A stretch of DNA of 64,000 nucleotides, from positions 3,392,050-3,456,049 of the forward strand of contig CP070695.1 in NCBI GenBank assembly GCA_020353515.1. The letters are read 5' to 3'. This stretch comes from Candidatus Heimdallarchaeota archaeon (GTDB taxonomy: Archaea > Asgardarchaeota > Heimdallarchaeia > Hodarchaeales > Hodarchaeaceae). Position numbers and translations under genes: made by a program. The notes beneath the pieces were generated by a model. The model did not search any database, had not been told where the DNA came from, and worked only from the letters and a program-made list of their open reading frames with translations. Positions 12,916-39,952 of the stretch are shown piece by piece. Each line of letters opens with the position of its first letter. The stretch's first letter is position 1.

Positions 12916-13308
12916 TCAAGGTTCAAAGGAGGGCTGTTGCATGTACATCTTTCTAATCGATACTAGCTCTCCATTAGTAAGGGTTAAGATTCCTAACTTC
13001 TCTGCAAGCTCTCTTGCGGTTGCTGAAAACTGGTTGGCACAAACCATTACTTTTGTCAACCCAGTGTTTACTTGCAACCTTTCTGCCTCTAATATAACAT
13101 TGTAACCACATGATCTTGACCAATCTTTAACGATCACACCGATTCTCCCGCCTATATCGACATTTTTATCTTTTGATCGATGTACTAAATAGGAAAACTG
13201 AAATTCTCTATCATTCTTCCCCCGTAATGTTACATTTGAATCAAAATCAAACTGTCTGAACCGTAAAAAGTCTTTCACTAAATTATTTAACTCTAGTTCC
13301 ATTTCCAA
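12916..13308 (-). CDS. Small restriction endonuclease-like (Mrr_cat / PD-(D/E)XK fold) protein, probably inactive
   Basis: NVTLRG..., VKDWSRSCG and FSATARELAEKLGI match the Mrr_cat pattern, but the catalytic acidic residues appear replaced. Confidence 0.65.
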   Translation of the reverse strand: MEMELELNNLVKDFLRFRQFDFDSNVTLRGKNDREFQFSYLVHRSKDKNVDIGGRIGVIVKDWSRSCGYNVILEAERLQVNTGLTKVMVCANQFSATARELAEKLGILTLTNGELVSIRKMYMQQPSFEP

Positions 13309-13986
13309 CCTACCATATTTCCAGTCTATAGTCCTGCAAATTTAACGCATTTATACTTAAAAAACTTTACTAAGGGTATTAACTAGAGTAGTACCCCTTC
13401 AATCCTATTTACTGTTTAAAGGCAAAAAAAAAAGTTTATCCTCTATTGAATACATGCCTTTTTTTGTCGGTTAAAATTGTATAATATGGGTATTTTTCAT
13501 GAAATACCAAATTAGATTAGTTTGTCATGTATTAGCTTGTGGTTTGATAGAATTGAATGAATGATGATCAGAAAATGTCTAGGTTAAAACTTTGTGAAAT
13601 AATGTGTTTCTTTTAATCATTAAGCCTTGATACAATTAGTCACGTCCTATTTTGACTAAAATTTTCTTTCATTTATGCAATGATTTCATGATAATATTCT
13701 GAATCGGTATAAAATCACTTACAAAGTCACATTCCTCAAAAATTTTTGAGACTCCATCATCAAGATAGTTTTCAAAGAATATCTTATTGTAAAATACAAA
13801 GATAAGAATATATGGCAAAGAAGAATTTTTTGTTTCTTGACTTTATACACTAACCTTTTTAGTTATCATTGGAGAAAAGTTCAGTAGAGCTAGACTCTAG
13901 TCTTTGGTCCTAAAAAAAAGCCCGTCATTCATACAACTTTCAATAAAGAATATATGATAAGATTATCAGCGGAGTAACTAATTGTA

Positions 13987-15075
13987 ATGTCAGAAAATCA
14001 AAAACAAGGTATTTTACTAGGCTTTGATCAAAAAGAATGTCGGCAGATATTGAAAAAAACTGGCATTCCCCGTATATCTAAAGAGAGTGTTAAAGCTCTA
14101 AATAATCTATTAACACGTAGAGCTCGTGAAATCGCTACTAAAGCAGTCACTTTGGCTGCAGAAAAAGATAGGGATGAAATTCTAGAGGAGGATATTACTC
14201 AAGCTGTAAGAATGGCTTCTGCAGTCCACACTTATGAAGTCGCAGTAGAAGCTCCAGTAGTCCATTATGTCTGGTTTATCAGTTCAGGAGGAACATGTCT
14301 CTTACGCCGCTCTTATTCTGGATTGGAGTTCCCTGACACGATTTTTTCTGGACTATTGACTGGAATTTTGGATTTAATGTCAGAAGTAACTGGGAGAATG
14401 ATAGAAAAGTTCTCTACTGACGATTTAACCATTCATATTAGACGAGTGGCCGAAATCACCGTTGCGGTTATCTGTGATAGCGAGCAAAGCTATGCTATTG
14501 ATGAATTAACTGATTTATTGGCTATAAGATTTGCTGATGTCTTTAATGAAGAAATTCAACAGGAAATTGTTGACACAAGTGTCTTCGATGACTTTGCTCC
14601 AGTTTTAGATGCATTGGTTGCTGGAGTAGGATTAAAAATCCCCAAAGAAAGCTTAAAAATCATAAAATCAAGTGCAAGTCTTACTGATAGGCAGTTAGAA
14701 GAAACTGTTGATGCAGCAGCGCTTCGAGAAGAGATGAGGCGAGCACAACATGCAATTCAAGATTTTGCTGTATTTAAAAGGGAAGAAAAAACTTCCGATA
14801 TGGACTCCTTATTCTATGAATCTCCAGATGTTACAGAAATAAAAGCAGTTCTCCGACAAGCGACTCAAGATATTCGTGAAGAATTTAATGATAATGGGGA
14901 TAAAGAACCTCAGATTGAGTTAAAGGCCGAAGATGTTTCACAAGAAGAAGTTCTAAAGGAAATTTCAAAGGATTTTCCCAAAATCGCTACCAAAAAAATC
15001 GCAGAAGTGGAAACCAAAAAACCTAAGAAAAAAACCCGAAAGAAATCCAGAAAAAGGAAACGTAGAAGGAAATAA
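13987..15075 (+). CDS. Archaeal histone-fold + longin-domain fusion with acidic linker and Lys/Arg-rich tail
   Basis: Residues about 12-77 align with HMf-type histones (RQILKKTGIPRISKES...REIATKAVTLA...RDEILEEDITQAVR). Residues about 90-210 have the longin pattern (VHYVWFISSGGTCLLRRSY...FSGLLTGI...RFADVF). Tail KKPKKKTRKKSRKRKRRRK. Confidence 0.85.
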   Translation: MSENQKQGILLGFDQKECRQILKKTGIPRISKESVKALNNLLTRRAREIATKAVTLAAEKDRDEILEEDITQAVRMASAVHTYEVAVEAPVVHYVWFISSGGTCLLRRSYSGLEFPDTIFSGLLTGILDLMSEVTGRMIEKFSTDDLTIHIRRVAEITVAVICDSEQSYAIDELTDLLAIRFADVFNEEIQQEIVDTSVFDDFAPVLDALVAGVGLKIPKESLKIIKSSASLTDRQLEETVDAAALREEMRRAQHAIQDFAVFKREEKTSDMDSLFYESPDVTEIKAVLRQATQDIREEFNDNGDKEPQIELKAEDVSQEEVLKEISKDFPKIATKKIAEVETKKPKKKTRKKSRKRKRRRK

Positions 15076-15112: not shown

Positions 15113-18100
15113 TTATTTATAAGGTTTTTTACGTTTGCTTATCCACAATACTAGAACAGCTGCCGTGGCAAATCCAATAAGGTCGAACGAAGCTGACTTT
15201 TTCTCTGTTGTACTTTCATCAGTGAAAGTGAATACTGCATCCGATATATCACTTGTTTTGAATAATCCATCAGTAACAGAAACATTCACAAGGTATTGGC
15301 TTCCAGGGGTAAATCCTTCGTCTATTGGATCCCACTCATAAGAAGAGATTTCTCTTCTATTGCGGACAAGTCTTTCCCAAGTTTCTCCTGAGTCATTACT
15401 TACATACACAGAGTATAAAAGAGTATCTTCGACGTTAGGATCACTACTATCCCATGTGATAGTAACTGGGTCCGGACCTACAGTTTCTCCACCATTTGGA
15501 TATATAACTTCAACGGTTGGTGAGAATTGATTAATGATAGTTACATCAGTTACTCTGTATTCCGTAAAGGGGAGCCAATCAAGGGATGTTCCAGTGAATC
15601 CCTTAACAACAATTTCGAATACATCATTCTGGCCGAAACCGTTGCTATCAACAGTTGCAGTCGTTCCTGTTTCTCTGTGTGAAACACCTAAAGATGCCTT
15701 CCCTGTGACTATAAACGGAAGGCCGCCTGGCCAATCACCCCATACATAATAGGGTTCGTAATCAATCCCCCAGTAATCGACTCCTATTGTATAGGTTCCA
15801 CTTTCAGTAGTAACATATTCAATGTGTTCAATACTACCTGGCTCTGTACTAGTTGCTACAATTGATCCAGTTGGAGAAATTAATATTAGTTCTAGATCAT
15901 GTGGAGGATCTCCAGGTGTCCCAGGGGGATCAGGGATAGTTAGATCTAGTACAATCTTTTGGCCAGCATGTAAGTTTGGCCAAGGTCGTAACCAATCGAA
16001 ATCTTCTGGATTAGAAGGTAAATCCCGAGGTATCGCTGTCTTCTCTGTTAATAGACCCTCTAGCTTGATTGAATTAACTAATTCAACCATAATTTTTGTA
16101 TCACGAATAAAGAGACTAGGGAATCCGGGTAAAGACCATGAATCGAAAGTGCCACTAAATTGGGCGTGGGGTCCTTCCCAACTGCTACCACTTGTAACTA
16201 CTGCATTGTTGGAATTTATAGCTCTAATCGTTGCTGTAGGTGCGTTAAACATGAGTCCATCTAATGCGTTATGACTTACATTTGTATAGGGAGCGGGAGG
16301 GTACCCATCGATTAAGGAAGGATCCGAACTATCATCAATAGTCTGGAGGCCAGCTTCACGGTAGCTAGTTAGGGTGGAATTGCGGATAGAACTTACTGTG
16401 ATAATGAAATCTTCAGAGGCAGACATTGAACCATATTCGATAGTATGTAAAGCAATACCAAGATAGCCAAGATGACCCGCGGAAGCCGTGGATTTATCGT
16501 GATACCAATCGTTTGCATTTGTTTTATCCCAATCCCAAAAACCGCTTACATCCCATGTAAAATCAGTAAGTAATACATTCTGACACTTCCAAGTTGGTTT
16601 ACCGTCCGTTCGACCTGTATTATCGAAGTTCTCTGATTGAGACTGTGTTGCACTATAAGGCCCGAAGTAAGCCGAACTACCATAACCACTCATAAATACA
16701 TGGACATCAATCACTGTTTGTGGATCAGTCCACGTGACATTTGTCATAACCCAAGTTGTAAAGTCATCAGTCCCATTATTTAAGAAGTAATCAATGTCTA
16801 CATAATAGAATCGCCAATCACCACTTATTGGAGTTTGTCCAAACCAGTTAACCGCCCCATATACCGCGCCATTATCATATGGATGTTCGTCTGATCCACC
16901 CCAAGATAACGACAGATCAGGAGGAGCTAGACCATCAACTCTAACACACATAGGGGTTAGTCCAGCTATTTTATCATCTTTTGTCCATTCAAGAAAACCA
17001 CCATACATCCCAGGAGTTGCAGAGTCGTCAACAGTAACAGTGACATCCCATGTAACACCTGAATCTAATACCACATCGACATCAATCGGAGTTCCTTGCC
17101 ATGGAACCCTTTGAAAAAGACGGACGGTGACGAGAACATCGAGAGAATCCCATTTGTCATTCTCGTATCCTACATCACGATAATATATAGTAGGACCTTT
17201 ACCATTAAGACCAGTCTTATAAAAAGCGTCTCCAGGCTTTCCAACATGTAACTGATGGTTATTTCCATTTGTTGTGTCACTTTGAACTCGGCGTACCTCT
17301 CCATCTGCCTCTGGTGCAAAATCAATTCTCCCATTGCCATTTAAATCGTTCCAATCATGTAGAAATACATAATTGCTGTCATCGACACTTCGGTAGACAT
17401 CTTCAAAATTTTTCTTGGGATAAGTGAGAAATACTACAGCGTAGTCACAGGTGTTCCATTGATCCATGAATACAGTATCAAAATGGTCCTCTAAGGGCCA
17501 AGTAGTATTCTCCGATGTTGAATGTAGTACACCGGTTGCCTCATTCCAAAATATCAGTTCATAAGCAGTTACAGAATCAGCAGTAGTTGAAGTCATGACA
17601 ACAGAAGCATCTATGTCAGTTACCTGTGACTCACCTGGGAACAAACTTCCAGTAAATACGCTGTTATCGAGCATAGTTATTCCAAGATCTGATGGGTGAT
17701 TTTGTCGTCGAGTTGATGGATCTTGTTCGGGAGAGAAAGGATCTCCAACTTCGTATAACCCTGTAGAGTATCCTAACCATCCACTTGCCCGATCATCTTG
17801 AGTAGCAACACGATCGAAAGTTGAAGTGCTACCAATCATAAGAAGTGGATCCGTTCCGTCTGTTTCGTTACCAAACATTGCATTAACAGCTCGCCATGCG
17901 TCAACACGTCCTGCTCCTTGACGGAAAGGATCATAACCTAAGTCAATAGCTGTTGATTCCATAACAGATTTTATATGTCCTGCAATATCTGAATTTGGGA
18001 ACCAACCTGCATCAACACCTGCTTGAAGCATCAAAGCGGCAACTCCTGCAGCTACTGGACATGCTAAACTAGTTCCGCCAAAAATTCCAACAGCGTTCAA

Positions 18101-19984
18101 ACCATTTCCTTGTCCATGGTCTAGCGCATCTACAGTAAATGTATATGCACCAAGAGCTACAACGTTTGGTTTTGGAACACCTGATGGCATAGGACCACCT
18201 GATGACCATGTAATCACTTGATCTGTCCCTTGTTCCCAATAGCCATTACTATCATATACATCTTCAAAGATATGAAAACTAGTACTTGCTCCAACTGTTA
18301 ATGCTCCTGCACTATTCGGTGTAAATCCTGTACCATAACCTGGTCCATCATTTCCAGCCGCCATTAAAATTAATGTGCTGTTCCACGATGATAAATAATC
18401 TATATACCAGCTCCACCAATCATAACCCCAAACAAAATCATATATCTCAAATCCAACCCATCCCCAAGAATTAGTGAGCAGGTCAGCCTTGTGATTACCA
18501 GTGTATGTCCAGTTAAGAAAATCTAGGTTCGGTTCTTGACTAACAATGGGATCCCAACCAGTACCCCATAACCATCCATATGGATTAAATGCCCGAATAG
18601 CCATTAGATCTGCTGCTGGAGCTATTCCTGGAAGCTTGTACACACTTCCATTTCCATAGACGTCATAGTGAGAGACCCCGCGACTAGCTGCCGCTGCTGC
18701 TGTACTAGTACCGTGACCATCTGGATCACACATAAAAGCAATACCAGCTCCAGTCTTATCGATTCCTCTTACTAGTCCGCCAGTCATGATGTCGAAAATA
18801 TCATTTGTATTTGCTAAACATCCTAAACTAAAATCATTAATACCATCTTTGTCAAAATCAGTAGCTAATACTTCGGTGCCGTCTCCCCACTTATGGGGAT
18901 CGTTGTTAGTGAAGTCCCAATCTGCCAATGGGCCTCCTATTTCAAGTTGATTATATATTGCTGTAAGATTCCAGGATGTTTCCCAGTCCACATACACTGT
19001 ATCATAATCTCCAGACACGGTTGAATCTGTGACAAGGAAAAGGAAAAATTCCAGCGCATTAGGCATACCTGGGGAGAAAGTTCCAGCTATACCGACTTTG
19101 TATGTACCAGAGACACTAGAAATACCAGTTCCAACCCTAATATCTTCAGTATCAAAAAGATAACTTGAATTAAGCCAAGCTGCTACATCACCAATCCAGA
19201 TAGGGTAGCTATGGTTATTGAGGAGTAAATAATTCCCATCTCTGGCAATTGACGCGTTAGTAACAGCCAAACCCGCGCCTACACCATCAAAGCTTGTTGG
19301 ATATCCCGAAGAATCAACTGCATAAGCAGTACTGAGGTCAGTCACACCAAAATCGGTACCTGAATCAACAAGACCGATAGTGACGCCTTTCCCATCAATT
19401 GGATAGGTAAATTCACCTTTTCCTGTGACATTATTAACCCGGTCAGCGCTCATTACTTTTTGCATGTCAAATTGTTTTACACTTTGTGGTTTTTCTGTCT
19501 TATAATTGGCGAGTTTCTCGGCCATGACAACCCCAACATCGGGTCTCAAGTAAATACGCTGCAAAGCTTTACTGTTAGTGACATATCCTTGAATAATATA
19601 GCCACCATTAATTTTGGCAGCTTGAACGACGGTCATATGTTTATTAAGAGCGAAAAAATCAACATCTGGGGTAGCACCCATTAGAAAATAGACCCGATCC
19701 TTGAAAGATCTAATCCCTTCAGGAATACGATTAGTTTCAAGGTAGGATCTGAGTTCTGGATCAAGAAATTGATAACGATTAAATTCAGGTTTTTTAAAAC
19801 TATTAGGAATTGGATCATCTTGAAGGTCACGAGATGAAGGAGAATTAAGAAATGGTACTATTTCATTTGTTAGAATTAACACTGGAATATTGACACAAAT
19901 TACAGATAATAGAAAGATAACGAACGATAATGGAATCATATTATTTTTTCTGGAAATAAGAAAAGAATAATTCATATTATTCAT
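15113..19984 (-). CDS. Large membrane-anchored S8 (subtilisin/pyrolysin-like) serine protease
   Basis: Catalytic triad LVDSGTD, DGHGTS, GGTSLACP; AAGNDGP oxyanion Asn; signal peptide; PPC/Ig-like C-terminal domains; hydrophobic and basic C-tail. Confidence 0.93.
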   Translation of the reverse strand: MNNMNYSFLISRKNNMIPLSFVIFLLSVICVNIPVLILTNEIVPFLNSPSSRDLQDDPIPNSFKKPEFNRYQFLDPELRSYLETNRIPEGIRSFKDRVYFLMGATPDVDFFALNKHMTVVQAAKINGGYIIQGYVTNSKALQRIYLRPDVGVVMAEKLANYKTEKPQSVKQFDMQKVMSADRVNNVTGKGEFTYPIDGKGVTIGLVDSGTDFGVTDLSTAYAVDSSGYPTSFDGVGAGLAVTNASIARDGNYLLLNNHSYPIWIGDVAAWLNSSYLFDTEDIRVGTGISSVSGTYKVGIAGTFSPGMPNALEFFLFLVTDSTVSGDYDTVYVDWETSWNLTAIYNQLEIGGPLADWDFTNNDPHKWGDGTEVLATDFDKDGINDFSLGCLANTNDIFDIMTGGLVRGIDKTGAGIAFMCDPDGHGTSTAAAAASRGVSHYDVYGNGSVYKLPGIAPAADLMAIRAFNPYGWLWGTGWDPIVSQEPNLDFLNWTYTGNHKADLLTNSWGWVGFEIYDFVWGYDWWSWYIDYLSSWNSTLILMAAGNDGPGYGTGFTPNSAGALTVGASTSFHIFEDVYDSNGYWEQGTDQVITWSSGGPMPSGVPKPNVVALGAYTFTVDALDHGQGNGLNAVGIFGGTSLACPVAAGVAALMLQAGVDAGWFPNSDIAGHIKSVMESTAIDLGYDPFRQGAGRVDAWRAVNAMFGNETDGTDPLLMIGSTSTFDRVATQDDRASGWLGYSTGLYEVGDPFSPEQDPSTRRQNHPSDLGITMLDNSVFTGSLFPGESQVTDIDASVVMTSTTADSVTAYELIFWNEATGVLHSTSENTTWPLEDHFDTVFMDQWNTCDYAVVFLTYPKKNFEDVYRSVDDSNYVFLHDWNDLNGNGRIDFAPEADGEVRRVQSDTTNGNNHQLHVGKPGDAFYKTGLNGKGPTIYYRDVGYENDKWDSLDVLVTVRLFQRVPWQGTPIDVDVVLDSGVTWDVTVTVDDSATPGMYGGFLEWTKDDKIAGLTPMCVRVDGLAPPDLSLSWGGSDEHPYDNGAVYGAVNWFGQTPISGDWRFYYVDIDYFLNNGTDDFTTWVMTNVTWTDPQTVIDVHVFMSGYGSSAYFGPYSATQSQSENFDNTGRTDGKPTWKCQNVLLTDFTWDVSGFWDWDKTNANDWYHDKSTASAGHLGYLGIALHTIEYGSMSASEDFIITVSSIRNSTLTSYREAGLQTIDDSSDPSLIDGYPPAPYTNVSHNALDGLMFNAPTATIRAINSNNAVVTSGSSWEGPHAQFSGTFDSWSLPGFPSLFIRDTKIMVELVNSIKLEGLLTEKTAIPRDLPSNPEDFDWLRPWPNLHAGQKIVLDLTIPDPPGTPGDPPHDLELILISPTGSIVATSTEPGSIEHIEYVTTESGTYTIGVDYWGIDYEPYYVWGDWPGGLPFIVTGKASLGVSHRETGTTATVDSNGFGQNDVFEIVVKGFTGTSLDWLPFTEYRVTDVTIINQFSPTVEVIYPNGGETVGPDPVTITWDSSDPNVEDTLLYSVYVSNDSGETWERLVRNRREISSYEWDPIDEGFTPGSQYLVNVSVTDGLFKTSDISDAVFTFTDESTTEKKSASFDLIGFATAAVLVLWISKRKKPYK

Positions 19985-34807: not shown

Positions 34808-35599
34808 TTGAAAATGTCTTGGTACGACGAGTATAACAATCTATTAGATGATTTCACACGCGCTGTTGAAGATGAGCTTCTGCAATATGTTCGTGGACTT
34901 ATTCTCTATGGATCTTATCAAAAGGAACAGGAAGAACCAGGTTGGATTATTCCTGGGATTAGCGATATAGATTTCATCTTAGTAGTTGACATCGATGACA
35001 TCAATGAAGAGAAACCACCACGAAGGTTAGCAAAAATTGGAGAAGCTTTATCAGTTTTCTTTGTTCATCCTGTTTACGCGCCTATTCTCGATTTACGACT
35101 ACTAGAATATACTGACTTACCAGCAAGAATTGGCATGGGTTTCTCCCCCATTCATGCTATCGCAGCTGCTCAGTATGGGGAAGCTATTCTCGGTAAAAAT
35201 GTTCTAGAGAATTTTACCTATAGTGAGAAATTATTGAACCGTTCTGCGAAAATAATCATAAATCAGGGTTATGAAAGTATTAAGCGTGGCTTTTTACATC
35301 ACGAACTTGGAGTAGAACCTGTTTGTTTTGAATTTGCTGATATAGTTCTAGACATCGCTCATGCAGCTCTAGCTGCGTCTGGAATATTTAATCTGGTTAG
35401 GCCAGAAGTTCCAGAGAAATTTGATCTCCTTTTAGGTGACCAAATAGGTAGTGACAGTGTTGATATTGTTTATGAATCTAAGAAGTGGCGTATGGGTAGC
35501 CAAAAAATGGAACCTTCTGAATTTCTACGTGGATCCCTTAAATTTGCCCAAGCTGTAATAAAACATATCAGAAATCCTTTTAATTCGAAGAATCCTTGA
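34808..35599 (+). CDS. Pol-beta-like nucleotidyltransferase with helical (HEPN-like) C-domain
   Basis: LYGSY...SDIDFILVV signature; C-terminal helical bundle (IAHAALAASG). Confidence 0.75.
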   Translation: MKMSWYDEYNNLLDDFTRAVEDELLQYVRGLILYGSYQKEQEEPGWIIPGISDIDFILVVDIDDINEEKPPRRLAKIGEALSVFFVHPVYAPILDLRLLEYTDLPARIGMGFSPIHAIAAAQYGEAILGKNVLENFTYSEKLLNRSAKIIINQGYESIKRGFLHHELGVEPVCFEFADIVLDIAHAALAASGIFNLVRPEVPEKFDLLLGDQIGSDSVDIVYESKKWRMGSQKMEPSEFLRGSLKFAQAVIKHIRNPFNSKNP

Positions 35600-39214: not shown

Positions 39215-39952
39215 ATGGCTCAAGATCGTTTTTACTCTGAAAAACCGTTGGTTCATCAGCATATCGTTCTTATAAATATCTCAGAGCTATATGGTCATGA
39301 AGAGATCGTGCAAACGCAAGTAGAGTGGTTAAAAGACAACTTAAAAAAACTTGGATATTTTTTCCGTCCGATCTTAGTAGCTAAGCACGAAAAAGTCATT
39401 CTTGACGGTCATCATCGAGTGGTTGCGCTTCAGGAAATAGGTGAAGAAAAGGGGGTAAAAACAATAAAGATTCCATGTGTTGAGATTGAATATGTTGACA
39501 ATCCTGATATAACACTCGGAACTTGGCATCCAATTTATACTGGAAAAGGATCCTTTAGCTTTCCAGATGAAATCAATAAAATTGGGATAGAATGGGAAAA
39601 AGTAGAATTATTTTCCCCGGCTCTATTGAATGTTCCAAAATTCGGTTTTACTCTCAAAACGAATGATGGTTGTTATTTCTGCTTAAAAGGAACTCAACAA
39701 GACATTTACAAGAAGTTTCTCAGCCATTTCGAACCTGAGGCCTTCGATTATGCGAAAACACTTGATTATGCTATACAATCGGTTGAAACTGGTAAAGGAA
39801 CATTTGCGCTTCTACGAACACGAGTCACAAAACAGGATGTCATCAGATCAGCGAAAAGTGAGAAACTTTATGCACCTAAAACAACACGTCATATTCTCTC
39901 GTTTCGATATCAGGATATTAAAGTTCCCCTAGAAAAATTATTTCAGTCATAG
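39215..39952 (+). CDS. serK: ADP-dependent L-serine kinase (ParB-like fold)
   Basis: GHEE, LDGHHR, TWHP, PKTTRH, VPLEKLF; matches Thermococcus SerK along its length as recalled. Confidence 0.85.
   Translation: MAQDRFYSEKPLVHQHIVLINISELYGHEEIVQTQVEWLKDNLKKLGYFFRPILVAKHEKVILDGHHRVVALQEIGEEKGVKTIKIPCVEIEYVDNPDITLGTWHPIYTGKGSFSFPDEINKIGIEWEKVELFSPALLNVPKFGFTLKTNDGCYFCLKGTQQDIYKKFLSHFEPEAFDYAKTLDYAIQSVETGKGTFALLRTRVTKQDVIRSAKSEKLYAPKTTRHILSFRYQDIKVPLEKLFQS

Follow-up and report, generated by a model that had tools for sequence, protein, structure and literature searches.

A histone fold joined to a longin domain in Hodarchaeales: a conserved protein family with a predicted homodimer

What does a histone fold do when it is joined to a longin domain? 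The question is raised by a gene in a 64,000-nucleotide stretch of a Candidatus Heimdallarchaeota genome (contig CP070695.1, positions 3,392,050 to 3,456,049; hereafter the window). An earlier note, made from the sequence alone, had read this gene as a histone fused to a longin-pattern domain, an acidic helical region and a polybasic tail, and had proposed a histone variant that heterodimerises with canonical histones, caps hypernucleosomes and links chromatin to longin/GTPase signalling. Our analysis points instead to a homodimeric longin platform clamped by a histone fold that has left nucleosome duty, a reading to which we give a probability of roughly 0.45.

The gene was found to be one intact open reading frame of 362 amino acids in a genome of 4.94 Mb assembled as a single contig (Table 1). 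That the fusion might be an assembly chimera or a singleton was ruled out by 66 homologues at 55-86% identity, of which about 62 were full length, and by a single read-derived contig, possibly from the source sample, that spanned the whole gene with 1 difference. In Hodarchaeum the gene stood alone within a syntenic, functionally mixed region; across lineages its neighbourhood was not conserved. The divergent upstream neighbour (12916-13308) encodes a stand-alone 130-aa Mrr-type restriction endonuclease fold and was kept in that position in 12 of 21 loci. The downstream neighbour (15113-19984), a subtilase (Peptidase_S8) of 1623 aa that is membrane-anchored at its C-terminus, occupied the same position in only 3 of 21 loci and is therefore probably a recent insertion. 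A scan for sigma-70 promoters returned fewer sites than shuffled sequence, with a model that does not suit archaea. In a wetland metatranscriptome, two contigs about 98% alike over 14436-14716, at a depth of 2, gave a weak hint of expression, for which DNA carry-over is a possible source.

Table 1. Features of the histone-longin gene, in window coordinates.
Feature	Coordinates	Strand	Remarks
Shine-Dalgarno-like motif GGAG	13971..13974	+	similar upstream distance for orthologues in inspected Hodarchaeum loci
Whole gene	13987..15075	+	stand-alone; divergent from Mrr-like gene, convergent with subtilase gene
Histone fold, residues 13-77	14023..14217	+	full-length three-helix type; handshake core, R29 and R62-D69 kept
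Longin domain, residues 90-213	14254..14625	+	most conserved part; invariant W96, G102, F115, D117, G122, G126, E133, G136, R137, F182
Longin alpha1/beta3 face, residues 113-147	14323..14427	+	motif FPD...G...G...EVTGR; predicted longin-longin interface
Conserved helix, residues 232-263	14680..14775	+	shared by every lineage and by the histone-less paralogue
Acidic, partly helical, low-confidence region, residues 264-343	14776..15015	+	conserved only within the Hodarchaeum clade
Polybasic tail, residues 344-362	15016..15072	+	lineage-specific; H1-like K/P/A/T repeats in some orthologues; no C-terminal Cys

The N-terminal domain belongs to the histone-fold superfamily (CBFD_NFYB_HMF). Residues 18-74 scored 27.8 bits against this Pfam family (cut-off 21.4), the sequence matches in the PDB were the archaeal histones HMk, HPhA, HHoB (Hodarchaeal) and HMfB, and AlphaFold2, supplied with a 62-sequence alignment for the whole protein, placed helices at residues 15-24, 32-59 and 67-77 with a pLDDT of about 85. 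The Pfam score and the three-helix model confirmed the histone fold claimed at about 14020-14217, and residue comparison bore out the details given with it: the R...D salt bridge (R62...D69) and the L1 RIS motif (R29-I-S) were kept, the RKTI loop was altered to RDEI and the tetramerisation His was replaced by Glu (E59). This was the sole histone fold joined to a non-histone domain in a genome whose histone complement was seven singlets and one doublet. A histone-domain tree of 66 columns named no donor histone. Elsewhere in the same genome, a singlet histone of 72 aa in which Tyr takes the place of the tetramer His (L082:502-720) is a possible second capstone-like variant, HMpC-like by eye.

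The nucleosomal character of the fold was assessed against the five DNA-contact and seven dimer-dimer residues of the HHoB nucleosome (bioRxiv 10.1101/2025.05.24.653377). The DNA-contact positions R9, R15, R21, K55 and K58 of HHoB correspond to E17, K23, R29, D63 and L66 in the fusion, so that two of five contacts were kept (K23 and R29). Two of the seven dimer-dimer residues were kept, both in the internal R62-D69 bridge; HHoB Y44, E47, I48, H51 and K68 read K52, T55, L56, E59 and M76. The equivalents of R9, K55, K58, Y44, E47, H51 and K68 were thus lost from the fusion, whereas six canonical histones of the same genome kept nearly all 12 residues.

The same pattern ran through the family. 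The tetramer position (equivalent to HMfB-49) held His in none of the 58 clade members and in 1 of 12 deep sequences, and was Glu or Asp in 51 of the 58. The R9 position carried Glu in 44 of 58 clade members and 8 of 12 deep sequences; RKT was still present in 12 of 58. The fold may nevertheless still bind DNA, since the R29 position was basic in every sequence (58/58 clade, 12/12 deep), position 23 was mostly Lys and the fold was net positive in most members, although neutral or acidic in some lineages. Mean pairwise identity of the histone fold was 59% within the clade and 27% between deep lineages; canonical Hodarchaeal histones were visibly near-invariant at the DNA-contact and dimer-dimer sites. 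Judged by its residues at these sites, the fusion fold would not be a nucleosomal histone of the HMfB/HHoB type, and loss of DNA contacts together with fast divergence appears to suit a self-pairing module better than a partner of canonical histones.

The second domain escaped detection by Pfam and was assigned from its model. Residues 91-213 were modelled with the topology beta-beta-alpha-beta-beta-beta-alpha-alpha, ending in two helices and lacking an N-terminal helix of its own. The top Foldseek matches were the longins of COPI, AP and TRAPP complexes. VIA-align, run on model residues 86-300, aligned a CPLANE longin at Z 14.5 (rmsd 2.4, 122 residues), VAMP7 at Z 14.0 and Sec22/TRAPP at 13.2, with Mon1 also among the matches, while roadblocks aligned over only about 100 residues. 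Under the published topological definition that separates the two folds (PMC10933270), the modelled domain is a longin and lacks what defines Roadblock/LC7, an N-terminal helix and at most one C-terminal helix. The topology and the Z score thus upheld the longin pattern reported earlier, along with its start at 14254; its end moved from about 14616 to about 14625. As a separate observation, the genome also encodes two adjacent longin proteins with a C-terminal HTH-like part (L081:831-3079), with a third copy elsewhere.

Conservation was highest in the longin. Its mean pairwise identity was 78% within the clade and 41% between deep lineages, and all 10 invariant columns of the family lay within it, seven of them in the beta2-alpha1-beta3 stretch. 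By these measures the longin is the most constrained part of the protein, and the histone fold evolves faster. The layout proposed earlier (histone, longin, acidic helices, basic tail) held, except that it had overlooked the conserved helix at residues 232-263, which was nearly as constant as the longin (74% and 40%). The acidic region that follows fell from 45% to 15%. In the AlphaFold2 model the helices after the longin were loosely placed, and a model of residues 210-335 had no informative Atlas match (TM at most 0.44), which gives no ground for calling the fold new.

The tail is extreme in charge and narrow in distribution. The last 20 residues carried a net +16, the highest value among about 4,079 ORFs of at least 100 aa in the genome (next, +12). 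Basic tails were found in the Hodarchaeum clade, in its sister P0219 and in one other lineage (P0077); in the other members, including LC_3 and HC1, the C-terminus was neutral or acidic. The tail had been proposed to supply DNA or membrane binding. Its absence from most deep lineages ruled it out as a core element of the family and removes it from the ancestral function. A lipid anchor was likewise excluded, no C-terminal Cys occurring in the 66 homologues, and the fusion protein had no transmembrane anchor. The K/P/A/T repeats of some orthologue tails are typical of DNA-condensing proteins.

The fusion recurs throughout the order, as the search across Asgard genomes proposed in the earlier note made plain. 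It was present, usually as a single copy, in 21 of 24 genomes of Hodarchaeales: 19 of the genus's 22 genomes (a single copy in each, in one case split over two contig ends) and both genomes of the sister family. The three genus genomes without it were 71, 87 and 93% complete. The 59 other genomes of the class yielded no match that combined histone and longin, nor did the 376 other Asgard genomes searched; in the 400-genome phylum search 5 candidates per genome were scored, and absence there means not found among those searched. The homologues bore the names Hodarchaeales or Hodarchaeum, although some matches carried NCBI labels of Thorarchaeota or Hermodarchaeota; these were taken as mislabels, since the loci share the Hodarchaeum gene order. 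A profile search of 1.84 billion cluster representatives added about 12 deeper clusters at 24-48% identity; the LC_3 member is HeimC3_22820. Set beside 37 other longins, those of all fusion members clustered together (support 99/93 in a midpoint-rooted tree with a rough bootstrap), and the family appears to have a single origin.

One deep member belongs to a cultured strain. P0076 (33% identity, E 7e-46) lay on a 52.8-kb contig of run DRR620298, which is RNA-seq of strain HC1 (bioRxiv 10.1101/2025.02.26.640444); the contig shows that the HC1 copy is present and says nothing on its expression level. The protein was assigned to HC1, and not to the methanogen partner, because it groups with LC_3 proteins. 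The HC1 orthologue (L059:8001-8951) has 316 aa, a histone fold of net charge -5 and no basic tail, and neither it nor the LC_3 copy gave a Pfam histone match. The six HC1 histones of a recent inventory (bioRxiv 10.64898/2026.07.02.735847) do not include the fusion copy, probably because its fold escapes Pfam. A histone-less paralogue (L080:3338-4075), consisting of the longin, the conserved helix and a C-terminal CPICG motif with in-frame stops upstream, was found in the same MAG as a full fusion. In an LC_3-like orthologue (L079:7467-8375) the histone and longin parts lay in different frames, through either an assembly error or a real split.

Pairing of the protein with itself was addressed by complex prediction on two copies of residues 6-270, in three runs with a custom alignment. 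The predicted homodimer scored an ipSAE of 0.56, against 0.00 for the best control, and passed a mark that 20 of 30 solved pairs attained, as did 1 of 23 single chains; these counts are only rough, a custom alignment having been used. The runs shared at least 84% of contacts, with a partner pLDDT of at least 59. In the best run, residues 12-74 paired in a histone handshake and residues 113-147 across the alpha1/beta3 faces of the longins, and the invariant residues of the family cluster at this predicted longin face. The other two runs gave only 69-81 contacts and probably represent a single interface. Since both interfaces resemble solved complexes, the pass may reflect that likeness, and the score is a measure of plausibility and not of binding.

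The reading that best joins these results is a non-nucleosomal homodimeric longin platform, clamped by its histone fold and weakly tethered to nucleic acid. Two copies would pair through the histone-fold handshake, which would hold two longins across their alpha1/beta3 faces in the layout of the longin/roadblock dimers on which small GTPases and other partners assemble. The histone fold would serve chiefly to clamp the dimer, much as in TAFs, NF-Y or SOS; it would be unable to stack into hypernucleosomes and would keep at most weak DNA contact, via R29 and a basic alpha1. In Hodarchaeum, the lineage-specific H1-like tail may add tethering to nucleic acid or to an anionic membrane. The proposal is consistent with the concentration of constraint and of every invariant column in the longin, the loss of nucleosomal residues that six canonical histones keep, the acidic HC1 fold and the escape of both the HC1 and LC_3 folds from Pfam, the predicted dimer, and a paralogue that has longin and helix without a histone fold. 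Against it stand the invariantly basic R29 in a fold that is mostly net positive, the sparse contacts of two of three prediction runs and the lack of a partner from gene context. Moreover, archaeal histones usually heterodimerise freely, according to one review (PMC10919886).

The analogy of TRAPP, Mon1-Ccz1 and MglB would make a small GTPase the most plausible partner of such a platform; that longin/roadblock dimers act as GTPase platforms is established (PMC10933270). The link to GTPase signalling drawn in the earlier note found no specific counterpart in the gene neighbourhood. The nearest small-GTPase gene in this genome lay 196 kb from the fusion, and with 66 small-GTPase ORFs in the genome a chance neighbour is expected in 6% of cases within 2.5 kb and 14% within 6 kb. 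Two sister-family genomes had an Arf gene about 1 kb upstream of the fusion, and LC_3 and a relative had a Rab-like gene about 1.6 kb upstream of it, but the two GTPase genes are non-orthologous (26% identity to each other), and a GTPase gene within 2.5 kb in 2 of 8 lineages is close to chance expectation. A conserved GTPase operon was thereby ruled out, and for the same reasons the context names no partner.

Other features of these loci were recorded. In the sister family (L021:1765-5056, L022:4298-8658) the fusion follows an Arf-like GTPase gene and a ParB/Srx-like gene on the same strand, with a nucleotidyltransferase gene close by in both loci; orthologues of the latter two genes lie 20-25 kb downstream in the window, at 34808-35599 and 39215-39952. 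At L051:2072-8290 in this genome, two tandem Arf-like GTPase genes adjoin a ubiquitin cluster recognised by sequence pattern (E1-like, ubiquitin-like, E2-like, MPN/JAB).

A stronger form of the platform reading would make the protein an ancestral Hodarchaeales coupler of chromatin to GTPases, in which a histone-clamped longin homodimer on DNA or histones is the GEF, GAP or effector of a specific small GTPase. We consider this improbable; if true, it would be a prokaryotic functional analogue, not a homologue, of chromatin-bound Ran regulation by RCC1. The rival nearest to the original proposal is a capstone variant that would pair with canonical histones as a heterodimer or dock onto them, stop hypernucleosomes from growing and present its longin at chromatin boundaries. 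The capstones published for Methanobacteriales are marked by Glu at HMfB position 49 (Stevens et al. 2020, PMC7776873), and an acidic residue there in 51 of 58 clade members, a kept handshake core and R29, seven singlets and a doublet as possible partners, and orthologue tails that in some cases resemble H1/HupB DNA-condensing repeats would all suit such a protein. However, the DNA contacts of alpha1 and L2 were also lost, R9 being replaced by Glu and K55 by Asp/Glu, the fold falls to 27% identity between lineages while canonical Hodarchaeal histones are near-invariant at these sites, the HC1 fold is acidic and published capstones are plain singlets. The marker residue of the capstone claim stood, but the loss of most DNA contacts and a divergence far faster than that of canonical histones spoke against the role, which we regard as rather unlikely.

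The loss of most DNA contacts, and the neutral or acidic folds of some lineages, also weigh on a one-component DNA regulator, in which a histone-fold homodimer would bend about 30 bp of DNA and the longin would act as sensor, like Asgard longin-HTH fusions. Such a protein would have company: the genome has longins of 211-217 aa with a C-terminal HTH-like part (a weak TrmB match in one of them, E 1.6e-4, below the cut-off), fusions of Asgard longins to signalling domains of prokaryotic type are common (bioRxiv 10.1101/2020.10.19.343400), and R29 is invariantly basic in a gene that stands alone. With no ligand pocket or operator identified and a neighbourhood that is not conserved across lineages, the regulator is doubtful to a high degree. 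An SOS-like membrane adaptor, with a lipid-sensing or autoinhibitory histone fold, a polybasic tail on anionic lipid and no chromatin role, has precedents in the SOS histone domain, which binds lipid and regulates a Ras GEF, and in the Lokiarchaeal Rab-GTPase histones (PMC11390915); moreover, the closest longin structures are membrane-trafficking proteins. Yet the tail is absent from most deep lineages, its expansions are K/P/A/T repeats and the protein has neither a C-terminal Cys nor a transmembrane anchor, and we hold this adaptor to be a poor prospect.

The homodimeric platform, if correct, would be an archaeal case of a histone fold drifting from nucleosome duty, as TAFs, NF-Y and SOS have done in eukaryotes. 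Hodarchaeales are a proposed sister group of eukaryotes, and the fusion, kept in nearly every searched genome of the order, joins a chromatin fold to a trafficking/GTPase-platform fold. The overlooked copy in cultured HC1 makes the family testable, and deposited RNA-seq and proteomes can be queried. New here are the longin identity, the residue losses, the lineage-specific tail and the histone-less paralogue.

The architecture itself, for which the earlier note knew of no described protein, is already in print, an outcome which that note had named as refuting its reading: in one sentence, the review of Hocher & Warnecke (2024, Genome Biol Evol, PMC10919886) mentions a Hodarchaeales histone-Roadblock/LC7 fusion of unknown function. 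No literature was found under the name longin, the mention using Roadblock/LC7. The two are almost certainly the same family, because this is the only histone fold joined to a non-histone domain in the genome; both are Hodarchaeal and combine a histone fold with a domain of the roadblock/longin superfamily. The domain is termed Roadblock/LC7 there and, having two C-terminal helices and no N-terminal helix, longin here, and set against that sentence the residue analysis, the conserved helix, the tail distribution and the HC1 and LC_3 members are given here only. The family is thus real and catalogued but uncharacterised, and not a first sighting.

Among known systems, HMfB and the Hodarchaeal HHoB (PDB 9QV5-7) share with the fusion the three-helix fold, handshake core, L1 Arg and R-D salt bridge; the fusion differs in having lost dimer-dimer residues, along with three of the five DNA contacts, and in its 285-residue C-terminal extension. 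The capstones of Methanobacteriales share the acidic residue at HMfB position 49 (PMC7776873) but are singlets of about 68 aa, whereas the fusion has several domains and comes from an unrelated lineage. Longin dimer platforms (TRAPP Bet5/Trs23, Mon1-Ccz1, CPLANE Fuzzy/Inturned, Lokiarchaeal 8YQG) resemble the longin in fold (Z 10-14.5) and in the predicted alpha1/beta3 face, at an identity of only 8-15%; those of eukaryotes are heterodimers and carry no histone fold, and the fusion is known from sequence and models. Like the fusion, the Lokiarchaeal Rab-GTPase histones (Schwab et al. 2024, PMC11390915, where longins are never mentioned) and SOS join a histone fold to small-GTPase biology. The former consist of an N-terminal GTPase and a C-terminal, alpha3-truncated fold, and SOS carries an H2A/H2B-like doublet in a GEF, whereas the fusion, with no GTPase domain and an alpha3 of 11 residues, places a full-length histone fold N-terminal to a longin.
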